Shown: one piece after another, positions 36,493-49,824 of the stretch
Layout of the letters: the number at the start of each line of letters is the position of its first letter
Position numbering within the stretch: position 1 is the stretch's first letter
Source of the DNA: a virus
Lineage: Duplodnaviria; Caudoviricetes
Direction: 5' to 3' (one strand)
DNA length: 64,000 nt
Virus record (IMG/VR): IMGVR_UViG_3300025362_000477
Position numbers and translations under genes: made by a program
Notes under the pieces: generated by a model
What the model was told of the DNA's origin: nothing
Database searches by the model: none
The model's input: the letters and a program-made list of their open reading frames with translations, nothing else

Positions 36493-37008
36493 TTAACCTC
36501 TATTAATTTTAATTGTATCGGAAAATATCTCGAGCAGTAATTCTTTCATTTTATCCTTAGATAATTCTATTCGTTCATTTATAGAATTATCAATAGCAGG
36601 TATAACTTCATTCTTTAATTCTATTCTTAATTGATCTTCCACTATTTCTTGAATTTTATCTACTAAATTAGTAGATAGCCATTCATCCAGAGCTTTTATA
36701 TTCTGTTTTTGAACGCTATCAAGGATAACAGCTGCTATTCGACGAGTATCATCACTTTCAGTAATTGCTTCATTCTTCTCTGGATCATATTCAATTGTCA
36801 GACCATATAACTTAGTACGACATGGTAGATATTCAGTATCTACTTTCCCTTCTGTTTTCGCAGATTCATTCCTTAGACATGTTGCAATTTTTGATAGTTT
36901 CTTATCTCCGAATACTCTTTTATAATTTTCTTTTATAACTGATAATGGATATAATGCACCGACCATCATCAAACTACATATTTGATCTATTAATTTAATT
37001 TCACTCAT
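36493..37008 (-). CDS. Hypothetical protein
   Basis: 171 aa directly upstream of RNAP beta-prime. Confidence 0.6.
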   Translation of the reverse strand: MSEIKLIDQICSLMMVGALYPLSVIKENYKRVFGDKKLSKIATCLRNESAKTEGKVDTEYLPCRTKLYGLTIEYDPEKNEAITESDDTRRIAAVILDSVQKQNIKALDEWLSTNLVDKIQEIVEDQLRIELKNEVIPAIDNSINERIELSKDKMKELLLEIFSDTIKINRG

Positions 37009-37612
37009 CGATAATCTCCATTAGAGGTTGTAATTCATCACGATTTAAATATGATTGAGAAATATTGAATTGTGATAACATCACTTCTAAAAGTAATATA
37101 TTTTCATAATTCAATGGTAAATCTAAAAAGCGAGAATCTAAACAGAATTGGTTACTAACATTATTTAAATTTGGATGGCAACCTTCACAATATACTTCTT
37201 GAATATTCAAGTTTTTCAAAATCCTATATTTTGAAATTCCATATCCTAAATCTTTAATTTTTTTTTGTCGAATATCATTTAAAATAGAAACTCTATTATT
37301 ATTTTGAATCATCGAGCATGATATTAATTTATCACATACTAAAAAATCATCTTCAATATAATAATGATCCTTATCTAAAATTTCTCTTAAACCTTCATTA
37401 AATGATGTAGTTGATTCCAATTTCTTTAATTCATAAGAACATTCTATCCTCCATAATTCTGCCATTAACCATCTAGGATTTTCATGATATATTCCATCAT
37501 ATAAAATTGCATCTTCTATATTTGATATAATATCAGGAACTTCTTTATTCAAATCAATAGAATCAAGTGATACTTTAAATTTTTTACATATTCTTATAAT
37601 ATCCAATTTCAT
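37001..37612 (-). CDS. E2 (UBC)-like domain protein, candidate
   Basis: CHPNLNNVSNQFCLD...SQFNISQSY parallels HPNVSGSDVCMG...MINYDSSY in 45354..47222. Confidence 0.5.
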   Translation of the reverse strand: MKLDIIRICKKFKVSLDSIDLNKEVPDIISNIEDAILYDGIYHENPRWLMAELWRIECSYELKKLESTTSFNEGLREILDKDHYYIEDDFLVCDKLISCSMIQNNNRVSILNDIRQKKIKDLGYGISKYRILKNLNIQEVYCEGCHPNLNNVSNQFCLDSRFLDLPLNYENILLLEVMLSQFNISQSYLNRDELQPLMEIIDE

Positions 37613-37863
37613 GCAGCACCTGTCACTGGATGGATCTCCATTTTTATATCTTTTAATGATGGATCATACGTTACAGCAACTCTAGAATGAGGAAACTCTT
37701 TTGCCATTTTCAAAATTGTATCTTTTAATTTATCCATATCTACAAAATCAATCTCCTTTTGAATATTTAATATAGGAATTTCTGCTATAATATGCTTCTC
37801 CTTAAAAACCTCCAAATCTCTTTCTAATAATTCATAATTCAAAATGCTTTTTTGACTTGTCAT
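37609..37863 (-). CDS. Small protein, candidate ubiquitin-like (ends VTGAA)
   Basis: 84 aa between the E1-like and E2-like genes; terminal beta-strand followed by small residues. Confidence 0.4.
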   Translation of the reverse strand: MTSQKSILNYELLERDLEVFKEKHIIAEIPILNIQKEIDFVDMDKLKDTILKMAKEFPHSRVAVTYDPSLKDIKMEIHPVTGAA

Positions 37864-38404
37864 ATAAATTTTCCCTTTTCAATATATGTATGTTATTTGT
37901 TTTCAAATTATAAAATCTAAAATCTTTATATAGATATTGATCATTCTTTAGATATTCCAAAACTTTAAATGCCGCAGATTCAATATAATATGGATTCTTT
38001 GATATAATATAACGATGATAATCTAATGCATCTTGTTTCGACATACTATCGATGTATAACATATAACCATCTAACGATATTCTAATATCAGCATTTATAT
38101 CGGGACTTTTACAATCACGACAATCAATAACAAAACCATTTCCTTCTATTGGACGTTCAATCTTTTCCATGAATACTTCTACTTCCATTGAAGGATTTTC
38201 ATATTTACATTGAAATCTCACTATTTTTATTTTTGGGATGCTACCCTCTTCTTTAAGAAAAGGATATGATGGATTTTCTGTGAACCGACTAACTACATCA
38301 AAATCATATATTTTTAATTGACTAATCAATTTTGATTTTGCTAATGATATAGCTAGTACTGATCCAACAGTTCCACAACCCACAATTAAAGGTTGATCTA
38401 TCAT
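37832..38404 (-). CDS. ThiF/E1-like protein, divergent
   Basis: IVGCGTVG, IYDFDVV, PKIK, VIDCRD; the SNLxR motif is degenerate. Confidence 0.65.
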   Translation of the reverse strand: MIDQPLIVGCGTVGSVLAISLAKSKLISQLKIYDFDVVSRFTENPSYPFLKEEGSIPKIKIVRFQCKYENPSMEVEVFMEKIERPIEGNGFVIDCRDCKSPDINADIRISLDGYMLYIDSMSKQDALDYHRYIISKNPYYIESAAFKVLEYLKNDQYLYKDFRFYNLKTNNIHILKRENLYDKSKKHFEL

Positions 38405-38406
38405 AA

Positions 38407-38784
38407 TTATTGAATTTTAGATGGTCTAAATAAAAATCTATGAACTTTACAATTTTGATCTAAAGTATAATTCTTGTCATTGATTAACAAATAATCACGC
38501 ATCAATAAAAATTGATCTCTCATTTCTTCTATTTTTTCATTATTCAACTCTTTGGTCTTTGCATCTAATAATATTTCCAAACATAAATGCTCTCCTTTAG
38601 GTGCGATTTTAAATAACTTCCTAACTGATAAATCACTATGCGCGGGAATAACCTTTCGAAATCTAAGTCCAGATTCCTTTAATATCTTCGCTACTTCATA
38701 TCCCTTCCTTGCTGCTTGTCGAGAGTCTTCATCTGCATTCATATCGAATTTTAAATTTTTCCTTGATTTTACTACTTCATCCAT
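38407..38784 (-). CDS. Hypothetical protein
   Basis: 125 aa with GGAGG RBS. Confidence 0.6.
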   Translation of the reverse strand: MDEVVKSRKNLKFDMNADEDSRQAARKGYEVAKILKESGLRFRKVIPAHSDLSVRKLFKIAPKGEHLCLEILLDAKTKELNNEKIEEMRDQFLLMRDYLLINDKNYTLDQNCKVHRFLFRPSKIQ

Positions 38785-39281
38785 TATCTTCCTCCTGCTA
38801 GTAATTGTAAATAATCTCTATGAACGAAATCGGCAACGGACATAGCTAAATACCTATAATCCTCTTTCAATTCATTCATTTCTTTATTCATTATATAATT
38901 ATTATCTATATAACATACTTTAGTGATTTTCCTATCAGTGTAACCAATATTGAAAGATCCTTCTAAGATAGATTTTATAAGACCTGCTTTAAAAGCAGCT
39001 TCTTGCTTCACATTTTTAAAGTACCAAAACCATGTTGGACTTGTAATAATTTTCTCTGGATTTAGATGGTGATACCCACAAACAGCCTTAATTAACATTC
39101 TGTCAATTCTAGGTCGTGATGTCAATATACACCATCTAATATCAAACTGCCCAGGATCACAGTGCAGTTGCTTGAAGGATATTTGGAAATTTTTAACAAA
39201 CCCTAACCAATCATCACTCCCAGCAACCGTACCATCAAAATCAAACAGATATAATAAACTAGCTGTTTTCAGAATCATCAT
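38784..39281 (-). CDS. HAD-superfamily phosphatase-like protein
   Basis: LFDFDGT motif I, ILTSRP motif II, K, YIDNN motif IV. Confidence 0.7.
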   Translation of the reverse strand: MMILKTASLLYLFDFDGTVAGSDDWLGFVKNFQISFKQLHCDPGQFDIRWCILTSRPRIDRMLIKAVCGYHHLNPEKIITSPTWFWYFKNVKQEAAFKAGLIKSILEGSFNIGYTDRKITKVCYIDNNYIMNKEMNELKEDYRYLAMSVADFVHRDYLQLLAGGR

Positions 39282-39498
39282 TTTCCTTCTTAATAAGGAT
39301 TTTATGTTTCACCGATAATGTATTATCAGCATATCCAATCGTAGTTTTTCCATCCTTTTGTTCAATTTCCACACCCATAGAATCAATACCTTTTGTTAAG
39401 GTTCCACTACATTCAGGAGTGCCTAGAGTTAACTTAATTTCTGTATCTCTACAAAAACTAGCAACTGTTTTAGCTCCACGTTTTATATATTTTTTCAT
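39259..39498 (-). CDS. Small protein, possible Sm/Hfq-like fold
   Basis: 79 aa; IKLTLG..ECSGTLTKGID..VEI pattern only. Confidence 0.35.
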   Translation of the reverse strand: MKKYIKRGAKTVASFCRDTEIKLTLGTPECSGTLTKGIDSMGVEIEQKDGKTTIGYADNTLSVKHKILIKKENDDSENS

Positions 39499-42107
39499 AT
39501 TTTAAATATCCTATCAGGTTCCATATCTTCAGCTGTATTGTGAGTGATAAGTGTGACATTTTTATCTCTAGATATTAATTTTGATAGTTGACAAAATATC
39601 TGTCTATTATCTGCATCTAAAGAATCCAATACTTCATCATAAAATAGATTATGTATTCTCTTATTATATAATCTCTCTGTTAATGATCTTAATGCTTCCA
39701 TACATGCCAAATCAACCATTCTCTTTTCACCACCGGAAAGCATCTTGTGACTATCTGTTCCTTTAATATTATGTAAAACTTTAACTTTAAACTTATCTCG
39801 AATATCCCCACTCTTAGTCTCACTGAGAGTATCAAATGAAACCGTGAATATACCAGGTGCAATTTTCTCTAAAGCTTCTGCCACTGATTCATTCATATGA
39901 GGAATTGCCATATCTATCAACATACTCTTAATTCCAGTATCTGAAAATGACTTTTTCCAAAATAATAAGATTTCTAGTTCCCTTTCGATCAAACCCCTTT
40001 TCGCTATTTCATCTATATGTTTTTGTTCAATAAGTAGTTTCTCAGATTTCTCCACTTCAATTCGAGTATCATCAATATCTTCTTCATTTTCAATGTTGAT
40101 TATATTCGTTTTGACATTATCTAATTCGTACCCCTTACCATTTTTTGAATCAACTAAGATATCATATTGAATTTTTGCATCTGATTCGATCTTAATTTGA
40201 GATTCAACTACACTGAATCTAGCAGAATCGACTTCAGATTTAGATTTTGAAGAATTAGTAATATCAGTCTGAAGTTGTATATACTTTTTATTATGTTCGG
40301 ATTGTTTATTTTGTCTTTCTAAATCAAACCTATTAGCTATTTCAGTTTCATCTATATCACATTTAGATTGAATGTCAGCTGATCTAGTATCAATATCAAG
40401 CTGCCTAGTTCTATAAACTTCAGTCTCGTTATCCATATTAGATTTGAGTTCATTAATCTTAACTTCACTGATCCTTCTATATTCAACAATCTCGTTATTA
40501 AGTAATTCGAGTTTTCTCTGAAATTCTTCAGCTCTCTTATTTTTCTTAATTTTGACATCATTAATTTTATCATCATAATCAGATCGGGCTTTATCCTTCA
40601 CCTCAGTACATTCTTTAAATTCAGCTTTCAGAACAACCATCTTATCTTCAATAGACTTAAATTGAACATTAAGGTCTATTATGATAGCTTTACCTTTAGA
40701 TATATCTTTCTTAATGATCTCAATATCTTCATCACTTGTAAATGGTCTCAAACATTTACTACATGTTGGAGATTCACCTAATAAAGATTCTTCATCTTTT
40801 GTCACTGATAACTGTTTTTCATCAATGTTAGTTTTTATAGATGCAGCATCACTTTTTAATTCAGATGCATTATCTCTTAGATCCTGAGCATTCTTCTCAA
40901 TGATGCCAAGTCTAGTCTCTTTCTCATGCTCAAGTGTAGATGTTGAAAATTCAACTTCTAATTGATTGATAGAGAAATTAACTTGTTGTATCTCTTTCTG
41001 TTTCTCTCTTTCAAAGTCAGAACAATCTTTGGTTATTGGAGTAGTATCATATTTTTTTGATATCTCCGAAATCTTCAAATAATTATCAGCCTTGTCATTT
41101 CTGAGCTTTTCTAATTTAACTTCACATGAATCTTTGACTACCTGTATCTCTTCTCGGCATCTATTAATAAAGTCATTATTTATTACTACTATCTCAGCCG
41201 ACTTTTTATTATCTGATTTATCCAAATCATCAAATAATGTTTTAGAGACCTGATCTAATTTTTGCCGCAATATAATAATTTCAGTTTTCAATTGATCTAA
41301 TTTGTTGGAATCAAATCCCATTTCATTAATCTGAATGGCAATCAATTGTATTTCATTTTCTAATCGTGTTTTAGTTAGTTTATGACTATCTAAACTATCT
41401 TGTTTCTTCTTCTCAGCTAATTCTTTATCAGATATTAATCGTTCAATACTTTGAGATTTCCATTCAATTTCTTGCTTAATTTTATCAATAGAAATAGTCA
41501 CATCTTGAATATCTTTCTTCAATACACCTTCTACTTCAAAAGCATTCTTATAATAAGTATTGTACACCTTAGTCTGTAATACTGAATCAAAAATCTCTTT
41601 CTGTTGAGTATTAGTCAGGGAGGTGAAGAAGTTCTTAACTTGTTGGCTAAAGTTAATCACGTTATGATAAATGTCTTTTGGATAAAGAATCTTTTCAATT
41701 AATTTATATGTGTCAGCTTTTGTTTTCCCGGTTATCGGAATATCATTCTTGAATAAGAAGAATTGATTATGAAATTTCTTATGTTCATAATACAGTTCAG
41801 TTCTATATTCATCAGTGGTATTGGTATCTGAATCAACTACTCGGAAATAAGTTTTAATCTCTAAATCTTTTCCCGTCTTTCGATTTACCATATCTGCAAT
41901 TGTAATTTTATCACCAGGAGGAGCACCATCATCCCCATATAACCCCATCGAAACGGCTTTTGGGATAGTAGATTTTCCTGCTCCATTCTTACCTTGGATC
42001 ACAGTAAAACTATCTATCGGGAAGTCCATTTCCATTTCATAATGGCAACGACAATTCTTCATCGTGATATTGTATATATAAATATCTTGCATTTTATATC
42101 CTCTCAA
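39495..42107 (-). CDS. sbcC: SbcC/Rad50 (T4 gp46-like) ATPase
   Basis: GKNGAGKS, Q-loop, coiled coil with CSKC zinc hook, LSGGE, YDEVLDSLD, ITHN. Confidence 0.92.
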   Translation of the reverse strand: MRGYKMQDIYIYNITMKNCRCHYEMEMDFPIDSFTVIQGKNGAGKSTIPKAVSMGLYGDDGAPPGDKITIADMVNRKTGKDLEIKTYFRVVDSDTNTTDEYRTELYYEHKKFHNQFFLFKNDIPITGKTKADTYKLIEKILYPKDIYHNVINFSQQVKNFFTSLTNTQQKEIFDSVLQTKVYNTYYKNAFEVEGVLKKDIQDVTISIDKIKQEIEWKSQSIERLISDKELAEKKKQDSLDSHKLTKTRLENEIQLIAIQINEMGFDSNKLDQLKTEIIILRQKLDQVSKTLFDDLDKSDNKKSAEIVVINNDFINRCREEIQVVKDSCEVKLEKLRNDKADNYLKISEISKKYDTTPITKDCSDFEREKQKEIQQVNFSINQLEVEFSTSTLEHEKETRLGIIEKNAQDLRDNASELKSDAASIKTNIDEKQLSVTKDEESLLGESPTCSKCLRPFTSDEDIEIIKKDISKGKAIIIDLNVQFKSIEDKMVVLKAEFKECTEVKDKARSDYDDKINDVKIKKNKRAEEFQRKLELLNNEIVEYRRISEVKINELKSNMDNETEVYRTRQLDIDTRSADIQSKCDIDETEIANRFDLERQNKQSEHNKKYIQLQTDITNSSKSKSEVDSARFSVVESQIKIESDAKIQYDILVDSKNGKGYELDNVKTNIINIENEEDIDDTRIEVEKSEKLLIEQKHIDEIAKRGLIERELEILLFWKKSFSDTGIKSMLIDMAIPHMNESVAEALEKIAPGIFTVSFDTLSETKSGDIRDKFKVKVLHNIKGTDSHKMLSGGEKRMVDLACMEALRSLTERLYNKRIHNLFYDEVLDSLDADNRQIFCQLSKLISRDKNVTLITHNTAEDMEPDRIFKI

Positions 42108-42508
42108 TCAACTAGTTTACACTCAAATTCATACCCATCATCATCAACATAAGTAATCTTCAATTTTTCAACAACACCTATATTTTTACCATGACCATCA
42201 ATAATATCATTAGGAATCAATCGAATAACATCATCTCTTAAAGTCAGTCCATTTGTAGGTTCCCAATATCTTCGAGCAACAACCTCATCTATAAAATCTC
42301 CCAGATTTGTCGAACCACATGTCAACTCTTCTATATTAGATATAAAGTTAAGGAATCCTTCAGGATAGTATTCATCTCCATCACGCTGGATAGAAGCTTT
42401 CCATTCGAAATAATATTCTCTATAACCATGATACCCAGAAAGTATTATAAAATAAGAATCTCGGGATCTTTCAATAACCCTTTCTCTTGTGATGCTAATC
42501 TTTTTCAT
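42104..42508 (-). CDS. Hypothetical protein between sbcD and sbcC
   Basis: 134 aa, ATGA-coupled. Confidence 0.6.
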   Translation of the reverse strand: MKKISITRERVIERSRDSYFIILSGYHGYREYYFEWKASIQRDGDEYYPEGFLNFISNIEELTCGSTNLGDFIDEVVARRYWEPTNGLTLRDDVIRLIPNDIIDGHGKNIGVVEKLKITYVDDDGYEFECKLVD

Positions 42509-43539
42509 TCAGTAACCCCCTTAGTAAGAATATCATATTTAGCCAGAAAGTCTAAATACTCAACACGATTTTCTTCTGGAATTTCTTTGATTTCCATATA
42601 CTTCTTTAATTGCTCCTCTCGAGTCTGAGTGATTTCAATACCTCGATTGGTAATATCAATCTCAACTGTCTCAACAACAAGTACCCCATCAGAAACTTCA
42701 TCTTTCAATTTCACACCAGACTTATTCTTGATCCGAACTAGATGTCCCTTATTTCTGGCAATTTCAGCCTTCTGTAGAATATCAGCTTTCTGTTCTATGG
42801 TTTCAATAGTATATTCTTTAAATTCTCGGAATCCAGTAATTGGAATCTGCTCAACCTCTAAAGTTTCAGTATCATAGATAAGAAACATCTTATGTTCATT
42901 TTTATCTCCCCAATCTCGATGATATATACTTCCAGCATAATAAATTCTCACATTATCATTTTTTAAATATTGAGGTGAATGATAATGCCCCAGAAGAGCA
43001 AGTTTGAATTTTTTCGATATATCATTCATTGTTATTTTATCAACACCACTCAATCCGGAAGCTAAATGAGCTTCATTCAATCCTAGATGAGAAATCAATA
43101 TATCAGTCGGTTCACAATCAATAATCTCATCCATAAAATTTTTAGTATGTGGGATATAAGTAATATTCCCAATAACCAATGGGCGATATGGAATACATTG
43201 CACATTTGGATATGCATCAAAAACAGAAATCGCGCTCTTCTGATTTTCTCCAACTGATGAATTATCATGATTTCCCGATATTATAGTAAAATTGATATCT
43301 GCATGTCTAATTAAAAATTCAGAAAATTGATTTTGTGCTACTGTATAAATAATAGACTTATCATTAATCAAATCACCCAAAATATCAATATCAATTATAT
43401 GTCTTTTCCGACATTCGCTAATTATAAATTCAAGGGTTTTCATGATCAGCCCCAACCGAATAGGTAAATTCAAATCATCTAACAAATCCGATTCAAATCC
43501 ACTAAGGTGGATATCACCCACTGCAGCTCTCTTTTTCAT
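42505..43539 (-). CDS. sbcD: SbcD/Mre11 (T4 gp47-like) nuclease
   Basis: GDIH, GD, GNHD, SH, GHYH phosphoesterase motifs. Confidence 0.92.
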   Translation of the reverse strand: MKKRAAVGDIHLSGFESDLLDDLNLPIRLGLIMKTLEFIISECRKRHIIDIDILGDLINDKSIIYTVAQNQFSEFLIRHADINFTIISGNHDNSSVGENQKSAISVFDAYPNVQCIPYRPLVIGNITYIPHTKNFMDEIIDCEPTDILISHLGLNEAHLASGLSGVDKITMNDISKKFKLALLGHYHSPQYLKNDNVRIYYAGSIYHRDWGDKNEHKMFLIYDTETLEVEQIPITGFREFKEYTIETIEQKADILQKAEIARNKGHLVRIKNKSGVKLKDEVSDGVLVVETVEIDITNRGIEITQTREEQLKKYMEIKEIPEENRVEYLDFLAKYDILTKGVTE

Positions 43540-43648: not shown

Positions 43649-44599
43649 TTATTCCTCTTCTACTTCTATTTCTTTTTGTTTTCTCGATTCAAGTTTTTCA
43701 ACAACTTCTTCTTGGTCACATGATTCTAATTCACCTATATCAAAAATCTCCTCTACATCATCATCTGTAAGAATCATATTACATGAATCACATGCATAGG
43801 GGAATGTATCAATAATATTAGCTCCACCACAATGACGGCAAAGGAATATTCTATCTTCATCATCTTCTCGATCAAACCCAAAAGAATCTTGGGTGACATC
43901 TCGATCTTCAAAAGTTAGAATCCCATCTTCATCTCTGTCTCCTTCTGTGAGAAGTTTACCAAGACGATAATCTTTAGCTGTTGAAGAACTTCCACCCATA
44001 CTCTTTTTCTTAATCTTCATTAAGATAGTATCTGCATCTTCAATATTAAATACCGGATATTGAACATTGATAGTGAGAGGTAATTGAATTCTGATATCAC
44101 CGCAAGTAACGTTAATAATACCTAATATGATATTATTCCCTTCATACAAAATAGAAAATTCAAAATTTCTATTTATATGCATTGCATCAACACCACTGAA
44201 TTGTCTACATCCAGTTGGATGTCGATGTACTACTCCATTATAATCATCACCTGGAGGATCTTCCTCAAAATCAATTGCTCCTCCAGATACTTTCTGTTGA
44301 GGGATAAAATGTGAATCCGGATCTACATTTAATACTCCTCCCTCAAATTTCCCCTTTAGAAAAACACCAAACTCCAATCCACTCATTCCTTGTAATGCCA
44401 TATGTCGTTCAATGCTTCTCATAAAGATAACAATTCTCTGTGGCACATTACATACAATAGGAAGAGTAATTGGAACTAATGAATCTAAAGTCCAATGATC
44501 ACTCCCAGTAGTTGAAGAACTTTGAAGTGATTCTTCAGACACATCTTTCAGTTCAACATCTCCATCATCATCTACGTCAAAACCTAATTCTTTTATCAT
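43649..44599 (-). CDS. JAB/JAMM metalloprotease with C-terminal zinc ribbon
   Basis: LEFG...HRHPTGCRQFSGVD matches E...HxHx7Sx2D; CRHC...CDSC. Confidence 0.82.
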   Translation of the reverse strand: MIKELGFDVDDDGDVELKDVSEESLQSSSTTGSDHWTLDSLVPITLPIVCNVPQRIVIFMRSIERHMALQGMSGLEFGVFLKGKFEGGVLNVDPDSHFIPQQKVSGGAIDFEEDPPGDDYNGVVHRHPTGCRQFSGVDAMHINRNFEFSILYEGNNIILGIINVTCGDIRIQLPLTINVQYPVFNIEDADTILMKIKKKSMGGSSSTAKDYRLGKLLTEGDRDEDGILTFEDRDVTQDSFGFDREDDEDRIFLCRHCGGANIIDTFPYACDSCNMILTDDDVEEIFDIGELESCDQEEVVEKLESRKQKEIEVEEE

Positions 44600-45357
44600 T
44601 CGGATGCATTCCCTTCTAAATATTCTCGGTACAATGTAGCCACTATATCTCGAGTGTCTACTGTGAATGTTTTATTAATTCGACCTCTTAGATCGAAAGA
44701 TTCAATATTAGATATGTTATCCATACCAGGACGATTAAAATCCTCATCTAAGTCCTTCATAGCAACTGCATCAGTAACAACAATAGATGCAATCATTTGA
44801 GATGGTGCTATGAAAGAAGGAGTAAATGTGTAATTATTCGCTTCCCCCCACACAGCAGTATGTCTCGGATTCCCATCAATAGTCACTGATAAGCCATCAT
44901 AACCTACTTTATAATATTTACAATTAAACTGGTATAAATCTTCGTATACATCATCTCGACAATCTATGATTAACAGTTCATCTATTATCTCACCAATAGC
45001 ATGTCTATCAAAATTAATATCATTTTCTATACGAGATTTCATCATAGCTATTTGATTAGTACAAGTCTTATCTTTATATGTTATAACATCTACATTAGCC
45101 CTTCGTTCAAGAATCAGATATTTCAAAGCATCAACCTTTGGAAATCCAACATCACATAATCTGAATGGAGTCCTGTTAAGATTACTACTTTCTACTGAAT
45201 CTGGATCTATTAAATGAATTGTCTTAACTGTCCCACTCAATGCGAGATCTAAAGCAACCCAACTACCAATACCACCAACTCCAGCAATAACAGCATGTTG
45301 ATATGAATGAGTTCTAATATCTTCTTGCCGATTTTGAATTTCTGAATTTAAATTCAT
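44596..45357 (-). CDS. ThiF/E1-like adenylyltransferase
   Basis: IAGVGGIG, LIDPDSVESSNLNR, PKVDAL, IIDCRDD. Confidence 0.88.
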   Translation of the reverse strand: MNLNSEIQNRQEDIRTHSYQHAVIAGVGGIGSWVALDLALSGTVKTIHLIDPDSVESSNLNRTPFRLCDVGFPKVDALKYLILERRANVDVITYKDKTCTNQIAMMKSRIENDINFDRHAIGEIIDELLIIDCRDDVYEDLYQFNCKYYKVGYDGLSVTIDGNPRHTAVWGEANNYTFTPSFIAPSQMIASIVVTDAVAMKDLDEDFNRPGMDNISNIESFDLRGRINKTFTVDTRDIVATLYREYLEGNASE

Positions 45358-47222
45358 TGTGTACCTCCAACTAAGTTAGTATCCCCTAACGAAAATGTCA
45401 TAGGAGCATATACTGGTGGTGGCGGAGGTGGAGTAAACACTAACTGCCGCTGTTCACCATTTTCATTAATTGTACTCAGATCATTAATTGATACTGATTC
45501 ATCCAATTCATATACAGAATCACCAAGAATAGCATCATCTTCCATATCATTAACCATATCATCAACAATATCATTCATTGAATAATTATCTCCTCTTAAT
45601 GGTTCCGTATTATTATGTGATGGGGATGTTTGAATCTCAGCTATGCTATCTCCATTATTATCATTTATTGTCACTATTCCCATTAGTTCGTTAACTTCTT
45701 CATCACTAATCTCTTCATCTTCATCATCATCTTCATCATCTCCAAGTTCTCTAATACTAGATGCATCACGGACTCGTTCAGCAATAGTTCGATCGTCAGT
45801 AGAAAATAATGACTCTTGGATTTCCGAAACGTCAAGTAAATGATCTCTTTTTTCGTTATGATAAGATGAATCATAATTGATCATGTCAAGCAACTCTTCT
45901 ACTCTAACTAATGATTCACCAAAATCAATATCAGCCTTTGTGAAATCAACAGATAGATTTCCCATACATACATCACTACCACTAACATTAGGATGGTCAC
46001 CCGTTGCTCTCATTTCCCCCTCTTGATTGATATATAATTTAGTTACGAGATAAGTTCTTTCTAATTCAGGAATTAGATATCTCTGATTCTTCCATACTAA
46101 ACTATCTGGTCTTATCTCAACTTCTTTACTCCACCACATTGAACTATCATCCCTACCATCGGCAAAACTAGGATCGCATGGCTCCCATCCAAACATTTCA
46201 AATTTTAAACCTATACGCATCCCTTTTGCGAATCCTCGTTTGAAAACATTTTTTTCTCGTTTACGTCTACTCGATATGAACGTAGATAAGATTCTGGAAT
46301 ATGAGTACTGATCATCAATACCAAATACAGTACCCTTAAATGCTGATTTTATTGATTCATCAATATATGAATCTACTCTAGCTTTAAATTCATCTAAGTC
46401 AGCATTCTCAGATGCATATCTATAAAATTGTCGATTATAACTATTATTATTAATCATTCGATTCATAGCTGATTGTTTTAATCGACCCCCTAGATCATTC
46501 TGGACTTCTCGTATATTCATATTAATAAATTGATCTAAAAATTTATGAAAACACATCAACAAATTTCTGAAACATTTTTTTACATCTTGATCATTATTCT
46601 GATTTAATATTTTTATTACTGCCTGCATCCTAAACATTAAAATTCCATTTGTTGTTGATACACCCAATAGGTAATTCTTATCGGAATAATAATAAAATTC
46701 ATTTATGCTATCTAAAATATTTGTCCGGTTTGATATACTCTCTTCTATCAATTTACGAACATCATTAAAATTTAACATATAGCCTTTAGCAGTTATCTTT
46801 CTTAAAACATTAATTCCATATTTTTTAGAAGCTATTCCATCAGTCCAATTTTTATTATATGAATTTGTCCAAAAATTTTCACTAGTATATTGACTATCTC
46901 GACTGCTATATAAACTATTATTAGATAAATTTCGAGGTGTGAAATCTGTAAATCGGATTGAAGAATAATGCCGTTCTTCATTGTTATCAACTAATGCTGA
47001 ATTAGTACCATTTCCTGAATCTGAAAATATTAATTTAGCTATCGGATTTATGGCTCCGTTACTGCTCATCTTATCAAAAGATATATTTGATTTCAAATCT
47101 TCAATTACTGGGTTTTCATCAAATATTTCTTTTAGTAATCTAATTAATCTATTCTGTGATTCAAATGATAATTTAGGGATTAATGAACATTGTGTAATAC
47201 GAAATCTATTTCTGTTAGACAT
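45354..47222 (-). CDS. Large protein with E2 (UBC)-like domain and acidic/poly-Pro tail
   Basis: GDHPNVSGSDVCMG (HPN plus Cys) near residue 420; D/E-rich tail with PPPPPP. Confidence 0.6.
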   Translation of the reverse strand: MSNRNRFRITQCSLIPKLSFESQNRLIRLLKEIFDENPVIEDLKSNISFDKMSSNGAINPIAKLIFSDSGNGTNSALVDNNEERHYSSIRFTDFTPRNLSNNSLYSSRDSQYTSENFWTNSYNKNWTDGIASKKYGINVLRKITAKGYMLNFNDVRKLIEESISNRTNILDSINEFYYYSDKNYLLGVSTTNGILMFRMQAVIKILNQNNDQDVKKCFRNLLMCFHKFLDQFINMNIREVQNDLGGRLKQSAMNRMINNNSYNRQFYRYASENADLDEFKARVDSYIDESIKSAFKGTVFGIDDQYSYSRILSTFISSRRKREKNVFKRGFAKGMRIGLKFEMFGWEPCDPSFADGRDDSSMWWSKEVEIRPDSLVWKNQRYLIPELERTYLVTKLYINQEGEMRATGDHPNVSGSDVCMGNLSVDFTKADIDFGESLVRVEELLDMINYDSSYHNEKRDHLLDVSEIQESLFSTDDRTIAERVRDASSIRELGDDEDDDEDEEISDEEVNELMGIVTINDNNGDSIAEIQTSPSHNNTEPLRGDNYSMNDIVDDMVNDMEDDAILGDSVYELDESVSINDLSTINENGEQRQLVFTPPPPPPVYAPMTFSLGDTNLVGGTQ

Positions 47223-47247
47223 TACAACTCCAATTTAGTTTTAGGAA

Positions 47248-47280
47248 AATAGGGTGATAACGATATGCTATCACCCTATT
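47248..47280. repeat. 12-bp hairpin between the Ubl and E2-like genes
   Basis: AATAGGGTGATA...TATCACCCTATT. Confidence 0.7.
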
Positions 47281-47284
47281 GTAA

Positions 47285-47893
47285 TTAGGCAGCTTTGTTA
47301 TGCTTACGAATACTCAGAAACATCAGATGACCATCTTTAATCTCGACGTCTTTATCATTCGTTACTTTCTTATTCATTTTGATGTCATTCACTGTGAATG
47401 TTGTCATCTTATTATCAACTGCATATTTACGAATACATTTGATTACATCCTGTGATGTTTTAACCACATATTTCGGAGAGCCATTAATAACCATTAACTG
47501 CTCATCATTCTCAATGCGGATCTTACGACCATCAGGAGTTGTTACTTTCTTCATTGCCTTTTTCTTATGGCGAATATTAGAAACCCGATATCCAGCCATC
47601 TCTTTTTTAGATGCCTCTGGAAGTTCTCCCTTAGGTTTCTCGCCCTCGACAATAGTTGTCTTTGATTTATCATCTGCTTTCTTAACAGCTGTTTTGGCTT
47701 CACCCTTTGAATATAATGGGAATCTGCCAGATGAATTAACAATAACACTACCCGCTTTAACTGCTTCAGTTAGATCACTCATGATCTGTGCAGCTTTAGT
47801 ATATCCAATTGATTTAGCAAGTGCTGTTGCGCTCATACCATCTTTCTTTACGCCAGCTATGATCTTTTCCAACAATGTTTTCTTTGATGCCAT
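47285..47893 (-). CDS. Winged-helix plus candidate ubiquitin-like (beta-grasp) fusion ending HNKAA
   Basis: N-terminal wHTH pattern, K-rich linker, about 75 aa C-terminal beta-alpha-beta domain; heads the E2-E1-JAB operon. Confidence 0.5.
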   Translation of the reverse strand: MASKKTLLEKIIAGVKKDGMSATALAKSIGYTKAAQIMSDLTEAVKAGSVIVNSSGRFPLYSKGEAKTAVKKADDKSKTTIVEGEKPKGELPEASKKEMAGYRVSNIRHKKKAMKKVTTPDGRKIRIENDEQLMVINGSPKYVVKTSQDVIKCIRKYAVDNKMTTFTVNDIKMNKKVTNDKDVEIKDGHLMFLSIRKHNKAA

Positions 47894-47894
47894 T

Positions 47895-48755
47895 TTAATG
47901 TTCCTCAACTTGTTTGTTTAATTTAAGTGGGATTATTTCTCCCGCTTCAGTTCCTAGTATATATGAATTACTATCGACTTTTGAAGTTGTGCTAGATGAT
48001 TGTTCATCTTCAACTTCTTTATCATTTATATAATCTGAAATTCTTTGATATTTAGCATCTCTATACTGACCAAATAATACTAAGGCAGTTTCATCATGCA
48101 ATAAATCATCAAATTCATCATCATCTATAATATCATATTCGTCGTCGTCATCTAACTCAAAATTTGAAATATCTAAATCATCCGTACTCGACTCAAATAT
48201 CTTATCTAACCCTTTATCTATTTTATCATCTATAGCTCTTGATCTTGTTAGGAGTGTATCTGAACACCCTTCTGCAAAAGATCTCCATTGTTTAAATTTT
48301 CCACCTGATTCTTTCTGATGTTTGGACGATAATTTAGTAATTGATTTTCTTAGGAAATTAAATAATTCAGATGCAGTTAATACATCTAAAGGATCCCCTA
48401 TAAAAATAATCTTCAATTCCGAATAAACATTTCCTTCTCTAGGTGTTCTCTTTATCAATGTCTTTGTTTGTGTTATTCTATTCACTGCCTTGATGAGATC
48501 CATCATCCACAGAGGAACAACATTTGCCTTAAATGATACACTTTCATATTCTTTAACTTCTAATAGATCAGAACTTCCTTCATTACCAGAATCCAATGCC
48601 AATACTTGACTCATTGATAGATGATGCTTTCTTAAAAGTTTCTGAGCCAATGCCATTGCATTAGCAGTTTCACCTATTGCCGCATTCGAACTTTCGTCAG
48701 CAACAGATAATAACTTCTGAATTTTCTGCAACACCGTATTATTTACATCGGTCAT
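47895..48755 (-). CDS. DUF2786-family protein
   Basis: LQKIQKLLSVA...EtanAMALAQKLLRKHHL signature. Confidence 0.75.
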   Translation of the reverse strand: MTDVNNTVLQKIQKLLSVADESSNAAIGETANAMALAQKLLRKHHLSMSQVLALDSGNEGSSDLLEVKEYESVSFKANVVPLWMMDLIKAVNRITQTKTLIKRTPREGNVYSELKIIFIGDPLDVLTASELFNFLRKSITKLSSKHQKESGGKFKQWRSFAEGCSDTLLTRSRAIDDKIDKGLDKIFESSTDDLDISNFELDDDDEYDIIDDDEFDDLLHDETALVLFGQYRDAKYQRISDYINDKEVEDEQSSSTTSKVDSNSYILGTEAGEIIPLKLNKQVEEH

Positions 48756-48992: not shown

Positions 48993-49667
48993 TTAACTTA
49001 TAACCATTCCATATATAAATTGTTGTGTAACTTTATTCCATGGTATGATGGCAAACCCATGAATCCCCCAACCACTTCCCCAACTATTCTGAATATAAAC
49101 TCCAATTGAATCATATCCACAAACCAATACAGCATGACCGCCGAGTTGTGCTGGAAATTCTATATCACCAATTCTTCCTTTTTTATCAACTCGATTCCAT
49201 TCATCAGTAATCATAAATCCAGCAACAAATGTTGTATGGGTATGAATGCAGAACTTAATAGAATCAATACTCTTCTTAACAAACTGTAAATTCCCCTTTA
49301 TCAACTTTAGATTTATAGCAGCTGTTCCAGTATACTCCAAACTAGTACCTGGGTTATCATTCCCTTCTATTTTCTTTGCTTCTTTATATATTGCATCACC
49401 ATCCAATTGTTCTGGATAATGTTTTTCTTTCCAATTCTTCACCTCAATCATCCCAGCAGTCGAGAATCCAGCACAATGAGGTGTTGATAATTGATTACTT
49501 GTTTTTATACACATATCTCTAAAATCTAATTTTATTGGTGCTATAAAATTAGATGGACTAGTAAAACTATTTTTCGCTGTTGCTAATGGACGATTTAATA
49601 TTAATCCCCCACCCGAAAAATTAGATGATTTAATCGGTATGAATTTTTTAATTATGAATCCGAACAC
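48993..49667 (-). CDS. Papain-like (C1) cysteine peptidase
   Basis: NQ..TPHCAGFS, GGHAVLVCGYD, QNSWGSGWG. Probable GTG start at 49667 after AGGAG. Confidence 0.82.
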   Translation of the reverse strand: MFGFIIKKFIPIKSSNFSGGGLILNRPLATAKNSFTSPSNFIAPIKLDFRDMCIKTSNQLSTPHCAGFSTAGMIEVKNWKEKHYPEQLDGDAIYKEAKKIEGNDNPGTSLEYTGTAAINLKLIKGNLQFVKKSIDSIKFCIHTHTTFVAGFMITDEWNRVDKKGRIGDIEFPAQLGGHAVLVCGYDSIGVYIQNSWGSGWGIHGFAIIPWNKVTQQFIYGMVIS

Positions 49668-49824
49668 TGCAATCTCCTGTAAATATTTTGTTTGTTTTCC
49701 ACCATGGATTATAATCTTCAAAATTATCATCGTTCAATTGAGGATTAATATTATCTAATGGTGGTGTTGGTGTAAATTGACATGATGAACATACCAATAA
49801 TAAACTTAATATAATTATTTTCAT
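49648..49824 (-). CDS. Small secreted or lipoprotein-like peptide, 58 aa
   Basis: Not in track. MKIIILSLLLVCSSCQFTPTPP...; AGGAG RBS. Confidence 0.5.
   Translation of the reverse strand: MKIIILSLLLVCSSCQFTPTPPLDNINPQLNDDNFEDYNPWWKTNKIFTGDCSVRIHN

Follow-up and report, generated by a model that had tools for sequence, protein, structure and literature searches.

The 64,000-nucleotide stretch of IMG/VR virus record IMGVR_UViG_3300025362_000477 analysed here (the window) contains, at positions 43649-47893, four co-directional minus-strand genes in the order modifier-E2-E1-JAB. We propose that these genes probably specify a phage-encoded, E3-less conjugation cascade of the ubiquitin type, the modifier of which would be a winged-helix protein. 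Judging from the sequences, the operon is more than a chance assembly: its E1 matches Pfam ThiF with an E-value of 7e-18, the motifs of its products are invariant in families of 16 to 64 homologues, and the gene order recurs in about 20 loci. The features of the operon (amino acids, aa) are as follows.

47285-47893, minus strand: modifier/substrate gene, 202 aa from its ATG, with the product ending SIRKHNKAA
45354-47222, minus strand: E2-like protein, 622 aa, with HPNVSGSDVC as residues 410-419
45783-46250, minus strand: predicted UBC-like E2 domain of that protein (residues 325-480); residues 410-412 are HPN, and the codon of the predicted catalytic Cys419 is at 45966-45968
44596-45357, minus strand: predicted E1, a minimal ThiF-type adenylating enzyme of 253 aa (Pfam ThiF)
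43649-44599, minus strand: predicted JAB/JAMM metallopeptidase of 316 aa, in which an acidic linker precedes a zinc ribbon (CxxC...CxxC) at the C-terminus
47248-47280, minus strand: hairpin between the modifier and E2 genes, 14 bp followed by UUUU

A preliminary description, made from the letters of this DNA alone, had reported four co-directional genes, the last three with overlapping stop and start codons. The open reading frames (ORFs) are arranged in this manner, the E2 and E1 genes and the E1 and JAB genes each overlapping by 4 nt (ATGA), which points to coupling of E2, E1 and JAB. The description had also pointed to a first protein ending in SIRKHNKAA, with Ala-Ala and not Gly-Gly, to HPNVSGSDVC in a 622-aa protein, to a ThiF/E1 with intact GxGxxG, D, SNLNR and K, to a JAB with E...HxHx7Sx2D and to a position directly upstream of sbcD-sbcC. 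These observations were borne out: the tail is invariant among homologues as KHNKA[A/G], HPNVSGSDVC lies where it is listed above, the E1 and JAB motifs are invariant in their respective homologues (see below), and the two neighbours were identified through Metallophos, AAA_23 and SbcC Walker B matches. Not listed in that description were DCRDD in the E1, the want of a catalytic Cys in the same enzyme, the winged helix of the modifier and the second triad dealt with below.

The E1 scores 65 bits against Pfam ThiF (cut-off 28.1) and possesses the motifs GVGGIGS, D51, SNLNR, K74 and DCRDD. In 21 of 21 sequences R10, G26-x-G28-G29-x-G31, D51, D53, N59-L-N-R62, K74 and D132-C-R-D135 are invariant, and S58 of SNLNR is nearly so (at least 90%). 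All residues by which ThiF/MoeB/E1 enzymes are recognised are therefore in place, namely GxGxxG, an acidic residue at the end of beta2, the Arg of NLxR, the Lys and the DxxD Mg site. Run against the PDB, the family profile matched PaaA (1e-15), MccB, TcdA, UBA3, UBA5 and ThiF, always through the Rossmann half. The cysteine of the crossover loop or CYS domain which marks canonical E1s for ubiquitin or for ubiquitin-like proteins (Ubls), of the UBA1, UBA3 and BilD type, is absent: the 21 sequences contain no conserved catalytic Cys and no inserted CYS domain, their sole conserved Cys being C133 in DCRD. The would-be position of the crossover loop is occupied by invariant or near-invariant hydroxyl residues (Y153, T159, Y176 and S181). 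Having no conserved Cys beyond DCRD and no CYS domain, the protein is thus, as predicted from its sequence, a minimal adenylating E1, unlike BilD; its want of a cysteine brings it nearer to BubCD (PMC11601596).

The E2-like protein comprises an N-terminal region of approximately 325 aa, the UBC-like E2 domain, an acidic and disordered C-terminal third and a terminal LGDxNL-type motif. An exhaustive HMMER search yielded a family of 66 representatives at 50% clustering, in which conservation is highest at residues 334-454. Of 64 representatives, 59-64 retain H410, P411, N412, V418, C419, G421, L444, L445, N449, D451 and S452, and 62-64 retain the four residues H410, P411, N412 and C419. An AlphaFold2 model of residues 325-480, based upon a 59-sequence alignment, reached a predicted local distance difference test score (pLDDT) of 92.8 and a predicted template modelling score of 0.84, with the elements in the order alpha1, strands, active-site loop, alpha2. 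Using Foldseek against the PDB, the top 50 matches to this model were nearly all E2s, at E-values of 0.13 or weaker and template modelling (TM) scores of about 0.4, while VIA-align returned almost exclusively UEV/E2 chains at Z 5-6.6, the top one being the UEV domain of VPS37A (Z 6.6). Among PDB sequences the family profile matched only eukaryotic E2s (UBE2C, UBE2A/B, UBC9 and UBE2N; E about 0.012), and the alignment places HPN on HPN, Cys419 on the catalytic Cys and LLxxINYDS on LLxxPNxxSP. Individually weak, these scores converge, and together they strongly support the prediction that residues 325-480 form a divergent E2 of the UBC type which keeps the classical HPN. The UBC fold and the cysteine position, which the preliminary description had named as checks on this region, agree with the confident model, the E2-dominated fold matches and the Cys-to-Cys alignment.

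A profile search with the N-terminal region of the 622-aa protein found no PDB sequence, the ESM Atlas models for this region and for the C-terminal domain of the modifier have a pLDDT of only 0.38-0.55 and were uninformative, and the whole protein has no match in the Pfam, PHROGs, NCBIfam and PADLOC libraries. An LSLGDxNLL-like motif is located at the extreme C-terminus (window 45354-45420; homologues P0025-P0051) of many family members, after the acidic disordered region, and is shared by the closer relatives; from its sequence this LGDxNL-type motif looks like a docking peptide for a partner. This copy of the protein also has a GG close to its C-terminus (...LVGGTQ), which was considered as the mark of a possible second E1 substrate; the idea was rejected, since the GG is not conserved and the LGDxNL-type motif is conserved instead.

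The JAB motif, E76 and H125-x-H127-x7-S135-x2-D138, is invariant in 16/16 homologues. The match of this protein to Pfam Prok-JAB is 16.5 bits (cut-off 25; E 0.008), and nine of the 16 family members match the same model, the best at 5e-4; against PDB sequences the family profile gave no match. Most members carry the CxxC...CxxC ribbon after the acidic linker.

The modifier begins with a winged helix (residues 1-65), from which a Lys-rich linker leads to a C-terminal domain of about 105 aa ending in KHNKAA. Its winged helix reaches Z 8.7 with TtgV, tied with MarR, ArsR and Z-alpha chains. In 26 distinct sequences with identity down to about 33% the C-terminal five residues, H-N-K-A-[A/G], do not vary, and the tail KHNKA[A/G] is fixed in 26 plus seven homologues; K-A-A is found in most, and others finish with KAG, in some cases with one residue added. 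The genes mostly stop straight after the tail, and at least seven homologues extend beyond it by 1-21 non-conserved aa. Non-conserved C-terminal extensions are also known from Ubl precursors. Moreover, the modifier gene adjoins the enzyme genes in every case. With its invariant tail ending in Ala or Gly, its precursor-like extensions and its adjacency to the enzymes, the first gene appears to behave like one for an E1 substrate; an invariant tail with variable extensions would be the signature of a C-terminus threaded through enzymes and sometimes needing to be unmasked. The model of the full-length modifier (pLDDT 64) shows residues 132-197 as strand-strand-helix-strand-strand followed by the tail, with pLDDT 40-78 there; weak as the model is, this order of elements fits that of a beta-grasp. 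A 107-aa homologue (P0095, on a 19.7-kb ENA contig) represents the C-terminal domain alone, without winged helix and still ending KHNKAA, and is either a real short form or the result of a mis-called start.

Homologous loci were collected by contig look-ups and by a scan built on a 19-sequence E2 alignment. The order modifier-E2-E1-JAB was present in every sufficiently long locus, in approximately 20 independent metagenomic loci, and was kept despite E2 identities down to 22% and modifier identities down to 26%. In one of them (L022 5859-7055) an insert of about 1.2 kb with a homing-endonuclease-like ORF separates the modifier and E2 genes. Every contig on which the family was seen is viral or metagenomic. 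So far as a pattern-based scan can show, 185,579 one-per-species prokaryotic genomes contained no relative of the E2 domain, and in IMG/VR it occurred on one other contig only. GenBank phages showed no DNA match and no E2 match, and only a few distant ThiF matches (crAss-like phages, Dulem virus).

Several results weigh against the proposed cascade. PADLOC, PHROGs and NCBIfam recognise E1 alone among the components of the operon, none of the RNA runs searched contains the region, and the fold-search scores of the E2, taken one at a time, are weak (no Foldseek E better than 0.13, Z under 7). For the C-terminal domain of the modifier the fold searches gave no match: all searches with the full-length protein (VIA-align, Foldseek against the PDB, Atlas) were captured by the winged helix. 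The profile of the C-terminal domain found no match among PDB sequences, and hhalign was negative against Escherichia coli MoaD. Pfam Intein_splicing weakly matches 22 of 26 members of the domain (best 1.6e-4; 11-21 bits, cut-off 35.8), and the tail contains H-N. The modifier terminates in Ala-Ala, with K-A-G in a few lineages and no C-terminal Gly-Gly. Co-folding of E1 with the C-terminal domain gave an ipSAE of 0.30 against a mark of 0.32, without controls, and hence no verdict either way. With regard to the complete Ubl-E2-E1-JAB operon of the preliminary description, the E1, E2 and JAB assignments (that of the E2 strongly) and a substrate-like tail are supported, and the beta-grasp fold of the Ubl was not confirmed (model pLDDT 64).

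The modifier and E2 genes are separated by a 62-nt gap containing the hairpin listed above, which has a dG of -21.9 kcal/mol and a z-score of -5.75 versus shuffles. In 15 of 17 related loci this gap likewise contains a strong hairpin, with an unrelated sequence, so that among relatives position and structure are kept and sequence is not. GC-rich hairpins of 11-19 bp, several with U-tracts, were seen in this gap in L003, L006-L009, L012, L016, L018, L019, L023, L024 and L026. The hairpin is likely a partial terminator or attenuator which sets the modifier:enzyme ratio; lying after the modifier gene, it would probably leave the modifier in excess over the enzymes.

Three further features of the window lie close to the operon.

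47895-48755, minus strand: DUF2786/DUF7168 gene (Pfam DUF7168 3.7e-9, DUF2786 1.5e-7)
39495-43539, minus strand: SbcD, a 134-aa ORF and SbcC (Pfam Metallophos 1e-6, AAA_23 2e-13, SbcC_Walker_B)
37001-38404, minus strand: second E1/small-protein/E2 triad (190-aa, 84-aa and 203-aa proteins) with no JAB

The second triad is, by sequence comparison, confirmed as paralogous to the operon. The 190-aa ThiF-like protein matches Pfam ThiF at 1e-7 and the E1 of the operon at 4e-6 (BLASTP); it retains the G-loop, Asp, Lys and DCRD, and the arginine of SNLxR is missing. The 203-aa protein contains HPN-x8-C-L-D and aligns with the E2 family profile over the HPN-Cys-helix segment (hhalign E 5.5e-5). The gene for the 84-aa protein overlaps that for the ThiF-like protein, and its product ends in IHPVTGAA. 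This tail reads HPVTG[AS]A in three relatives, and that of a further, distant relative ends in SA; it resembles the FFPPVTGG end of E. coli MoaD, the likeness being one of six tail residues (hhalign E 0.19). A word-based search with the 84-aa protein found only itself, and hhalign gave no significant alignment between it and the C-terminal domain of the modifier. The full triad occurs in L003 and L015 only, with parts of it in L017, L008 and L024.

SbcD and SbcC, or the contig's share of them, follow the JAB gene in nearly every locus that is long enough, the exception being L008 in which SbcC is upstream. Between SbcC and the second triad of the window are genes for a 165-aa protein with a HAD-like LFDFDGT start (38784-39281, minus strand) and a 125-aa protein (38407-38784, minus strand), which are kept in most relatives and have no Pfam match. 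On the other side of the operon, the stop of the DUF2786/DUF7168 gene lies 1 nt from the modifier start, and this gene is kept as the upstream neighbour in the closer clade, being present there in front of the modifier in 11 loci; the most distant loci have other genes in its place. It is possibly a fifth component of the operon. Two genes upstream of the modifier, a 245-aa protein (48993-49730, minus strand) gives a weak match to Peptidase_C1, the papain family (1e-4), and is possibly a second peptidase. In L004 (5708-7321) an IS605-type Y1 transposase and OrfB/TnpB pair is found upstream of the operon, a mobile-element insertion in the block. Distant relatives have PTPS (QueD-like) or QueC/GATase genes near the operon (L006 1301-1774, L007 1931-2380 and L008 10394-12073), and these hint at a possible DNA modification of the 7-deazaguanine type in the phage clade.

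The source record is a 141.5-kb IMG/VR virus contig with an estimated completeness (CheckV) of 44%, a GC content of about 32% and genes that are nearly all minus-strand. Among the products encoded are a large terminase of the T4 type, an NAD-dependent ligase, a Dda-like helicase, NAMPT, and the unsplit beta and beta' subunits of a multisubunit RNA polymerase (RNAP). The large terminase shows at most about 30% identity to those of GenBank phages, the nearest being Flavobacterium phages, and near-identical DNA is present in several salt-lake metagenomes. From the divergence of the terminase, the gene content and the metagenome matches, the source is therefore an uncultured large or jumbo phage. 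A gyrase/topoisomerase B-like gene (G000:C1:31925-32230; L030), outside the window, harbours an intein (Pfam Intein_splicing 2e-7) which starts with Cys right after ...ADADG and is followed by a separate homing-endonuclease-like ORF.

In the cascade which we propose, the modifier would probably be made in excess over the enzymes, an expression effect that we infer from the observed hairpin. Where residues beyond KHNKA[A/G] are present, the JAMM peptidase would trim them, and it would probably reverse conjugates as well. The ThiF-type E1, probably a homodimer, would bind the extended tail and adenylate the C-terminal Ala or Gly with ATP-Mg. Since the E1 has no conserved Cys outside DCRD, the acyl-adenylate would then be attacked directly by Cys419 of the E2, or else be relayed through an E1 oxyester on Y153, T159, Y176 or S181, as in the Bub systems. 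The HPN-type E2 would subsequently transfer the modifier to a target lysine, and its N-terminal region, acidic tail and LGDxNL motif would provide the recognition of targets and partners, replacing an E3. As the outcome, a nucleic-acid-binding winged helix would be placed covalently on phage or host proteins, or on the Lys-rich linker of the modifier itself. The operon keeps its place next to SbcCD and the phage RNAP, which suggests that conjugation would fall in the phase of replication, recombination and transcription, and payload and neighbourhood point to DNA-associated proteins as the presumptive targets.

Put in its widest form, this proposal holds that a clade of large lytic phages runs a complete cascade of the ubiquitin type, some members running two, in which a Cys-less E1 hands an Ala-terminated modifier straight to an HPN-type E2 and the winged-helix cargo is put on replication, recombination or transcription proteins of phage or host, or polymerised via its Lys-rich linker on DNA. 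We advance this larger claim tentatively, giving it somewhat less than an even chance. If true, it would represent a bacterial-virus counterpart of SUMO-like and ubiquitin-like chromatin and repair signalling and, so far as the searched literature shows, the first full set of E1, E2, deconjugase and modifier described in a phage.

The H-N of the modifier tail brings to mind autoprocessing of the Hint/intein kind, in which a degenerate Hint C-terminal domain would cyclise at His-Asn and free KAA (with any extension), the ThiF enzyme carrying out Asn/succinimide chemistry. Such an origin would account for the Intein_splicing matches of the 22 members, one of which spans profile positions 21-86, and for two likenesses seen by eye, namely of the tail ...DVEIKDGH.MF.SI.KHN to intein blocks F and G and of TTPDGRKIRIENDEQLMVING to block B; that the solved structures closest to the E1 profile are PaaA and MccB is also in its favour. 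All of the matches, however, lie far under the Pfam cut-off, and the C-terminal domain is without an N-terminal nucleophile, reads E..E at the TxxH positions, is short for a Hint domain at about 105 aa and has a 14-residue helix in its model. Against the phage's own genuine intein hhalign gave a probability of 2%, and the domain profile finds no PDB intein. In addition, conservation of the three residues that follow H-N equals that of H-N, and the majority of the genes stop exactly at this point, which is explained by tail recognition by E1, E2 and JAB and not by self-cleavage; an invariant HPN-Cys E2 and a JAMM peptidase would be left without a role. We regard this origin as distinctly improbable. 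Alternatively, the domain may be a thiocarboxylated carrier of the ThiS/MoaD-ThiF/MoeB type that donates sulfur to a cofactor or nucleoside (for example to modify DNA or tRNA), the JAB playing the part that it has in CysO/Mec+ and QbsE/QbsD. The single-domain, Cys-less E1 is like ThiF and MoeB, the end of the 84-aa protein is close to that of MoaD, and QueC or PTPS genes are near some related loci. The MoaD likeness is nevertheless confined to the six tail residues, there is no Gly-Gly terminus, the carrier would be fused to a winged helix, and the operon has no conserved rhodanese, cysteine desulfurase or sulfur-acceptor enzyme. To our knowledge, no sulfur relay includes an invariant HPN-Cys E2 domain. 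A role in sulfur transfer thus appears extremely improbable.

A non-catalytic assembly would make the UBC-like domain a UEV-like binder and the ThiF protein a nucleotide-binding scaffold which, together with the winged-helix protein, serves for instance as a transcription or replication factor, with no covalent transfer. The top VIA-align match being a UEV domain, the loss of the SNLxR arginine from the ThiF paralogue of the second triad, and the lack of both an E3 and an E1 cysteine are compatible with this. UEV domains, however, are missing the catalytic Cys and HPN, whereas here 62-64 of the 64 representatives retain H410, P411, N412 and C419, and every ATP/Mg ligand of the E1 and every metal ligand of the JAMM protein is invariant. 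This argues for catalysis in all three proteins and makes such an assembly very improbable. Counter-defence differs from these explanations in that it concerns role only and is compatible with the proposed cascade: the enzymes would be real and their chief job would be to interfere with Ubl-based immunity of the host (Bil, type II cyclic oligonucleotide-based antiphage signalling system (CBASS) or Bub), the JAB stripping conjugates or the E1 and E2 trapping or mis-conjugating the host modifier. Host Bil conjugates its Ubl to phage tail proteins (PMC10557695) and CBASS uses Cap2/Cap3, and the restriction of the family to viral or metagenomic contigs, the pattern scan having met none, so far as it can show, in 185,579 species genomes, is in keeping with such a task. 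Yet the phage itself supplies a dedicated substrate, whose non-Gly tail is co-conserved, the operon belongs to a conserved replication/recombination block and not to a variable anti-defence region, even very divergent relatives keep its gene order and content, unlike fast-turnover counter-defence genes, and PADLOC reveals no likeness to the Bil or Cap3 peptidases. Counter-defence as the chief role is therefore unlikely.

Ubiquitin-type conjugation in prokaryotes is seen today as a cellular weapon against phages (Bil, Bub and CBASS Cap2/Cap3), and viral use of ubiquitin-type systems is known chiefly for eukaryotic viruses. A conserved phage operon of E1, E2, JAB and modifier would place this chemistry in the hands of phages. 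Full-text literature searches did not turn up any phage described as having E1, E2, JAB and modifier together; no such set is mentioned in a review comparing 224 jumbo phages (PMC7824862), and an Asgard-virus preprint describes E1-like genes only. With a 253-aa E1 devoid of a catalytic Cys and a eukaryote-like HPN E2, the cascade would be a very compact one for mechanistic study, and the rules for the modifier terminus would widen to Ala-Ala. The winged-helix payload and the SbcCD and RNAP neighbours suggest a link of protein conjugation to phage DNA transactions. In addition, an HPN-type E2 in a virus bears on the origin of classical E2s, several bacterial E2-like families having lost the HPN histidine (Iyer et al. 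2006, PMC1779556).

Compared with the known systems, the operon has the same four parts as BilABCD, namely a modifier, an E2 that stands alone and has a catalytic Cys, the JAB/JAMM peptidase and the E1, and in neither is there an E3. The Bil JAB pre-processes modifiers which have extra C-terminal residues, the described case being a Ubl with one such residue (PMC10557695). The E1s differ, that of Bil having the architecture IAD-AAD-CYS (BilD; PMC10557695) versus a single domain here. The Bil modifier ends in Gly and consists of beta-grasp domains, in contrast to an Ala-Ala or Ala-Gly end and a winged-helix fusion, and the present E2 has a 325-aa N-terminal region, a long acidic tail and the classical HPN. 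No Bil model of PADLOC was matched, and the location is a phage core block versus a bacterial defence island.

The Bub systems (6E/DUF6527) resemble the operon in their single-domain, homodimer-type E1 without a catalytic Cys (here probably a homodimer too), in the JAB of Bub type I and in modifiers with varied N-terminal domains (PMC11601596). Transfer from a Cys-less E1 by way of other nucleophiles has been described for Bub (PMC11601596). Bub, however, employs Tyr/Ser oxyesters and a Ser/His E2, whereas the E2 here has an invariant Cys and HPN, and the DUF6527 serine protease and the E2-Ubl and JAB-E1 fusions of Bub are absent here. With type II CBASS the operon has in common E1/E2 chemistry on the C-terminus of a functional protein, as opposed to a dedicated small Ubl, and a JAB (Cap3) which reverses it. 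Type II CBASS accepts a terminal Gly or Ala. The Rossmann half of the E1 matches Cap2 (PADLOC E1-E2 7e-13; PDB 7tsq), in the Rossmann region only. Cap2, in contrast, is an E2-E1 fusion with Cys in both halves and a CD-NTase as substrate; here the proteins are separate and there is no nucleotidyltransferase.

The E2 domain shares with classical eukaryotic and archaeal E2s an HPN located 6-8 residues before the Cys, the LLxxxNxD(S/P) helix motif and the topology alpha1, four strands, active-site loop, alpha2, and differs in lying inside a 622-aa protein, in its marginal similarity (E about 0.01, TM about 0.4) and in having no known E3 as partner. ThiF/MoeB with ThiS/MoaD, and MccB/PaaA, likewise adenylate a C-terminal carboxylate by a single-domain enzyme, and the PVTG tail of the 84-aa protein is like that of MoaD; the operon differs from them in having no Gly-Gly, no sulfur-transfer partner and no peptide-clamp domain, and in possessing an E2 and a JAB. 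PRTRC cassettes, which are carried by mobile elements, likewise bring together ThiF-family proteins, E2-like proteins and small Ubl-like ones. PRTRC_ThiF reaches only 17.8 bits here (cut-off 144.75), the models for PRTRC A, B and C gave no match, and there is no ParB. The only phage Ubl-JAB pair described earlier is TAPI (Ubl) and TAPK (JAB-NlpC/P60) of lambda and T1 tail assembly (PMC1779556). Unlike the operon, this pair has no E1 or E2, is a structural-assembly module within the tail gene cluster and is unrelated to the operon in sequence.

By their defining features the operon falls outside BilABCD, Bub, CBASS Cap2/Cap3 and PRTRC alike. It is closest to BilABCD by inventory, to Bub and ThiF by E1 architecture and to CBASS Cap2/Cap3 by its use of a functional protein's tail, and we read it as a phage-borne variant of the Bil-like conjugation systems.

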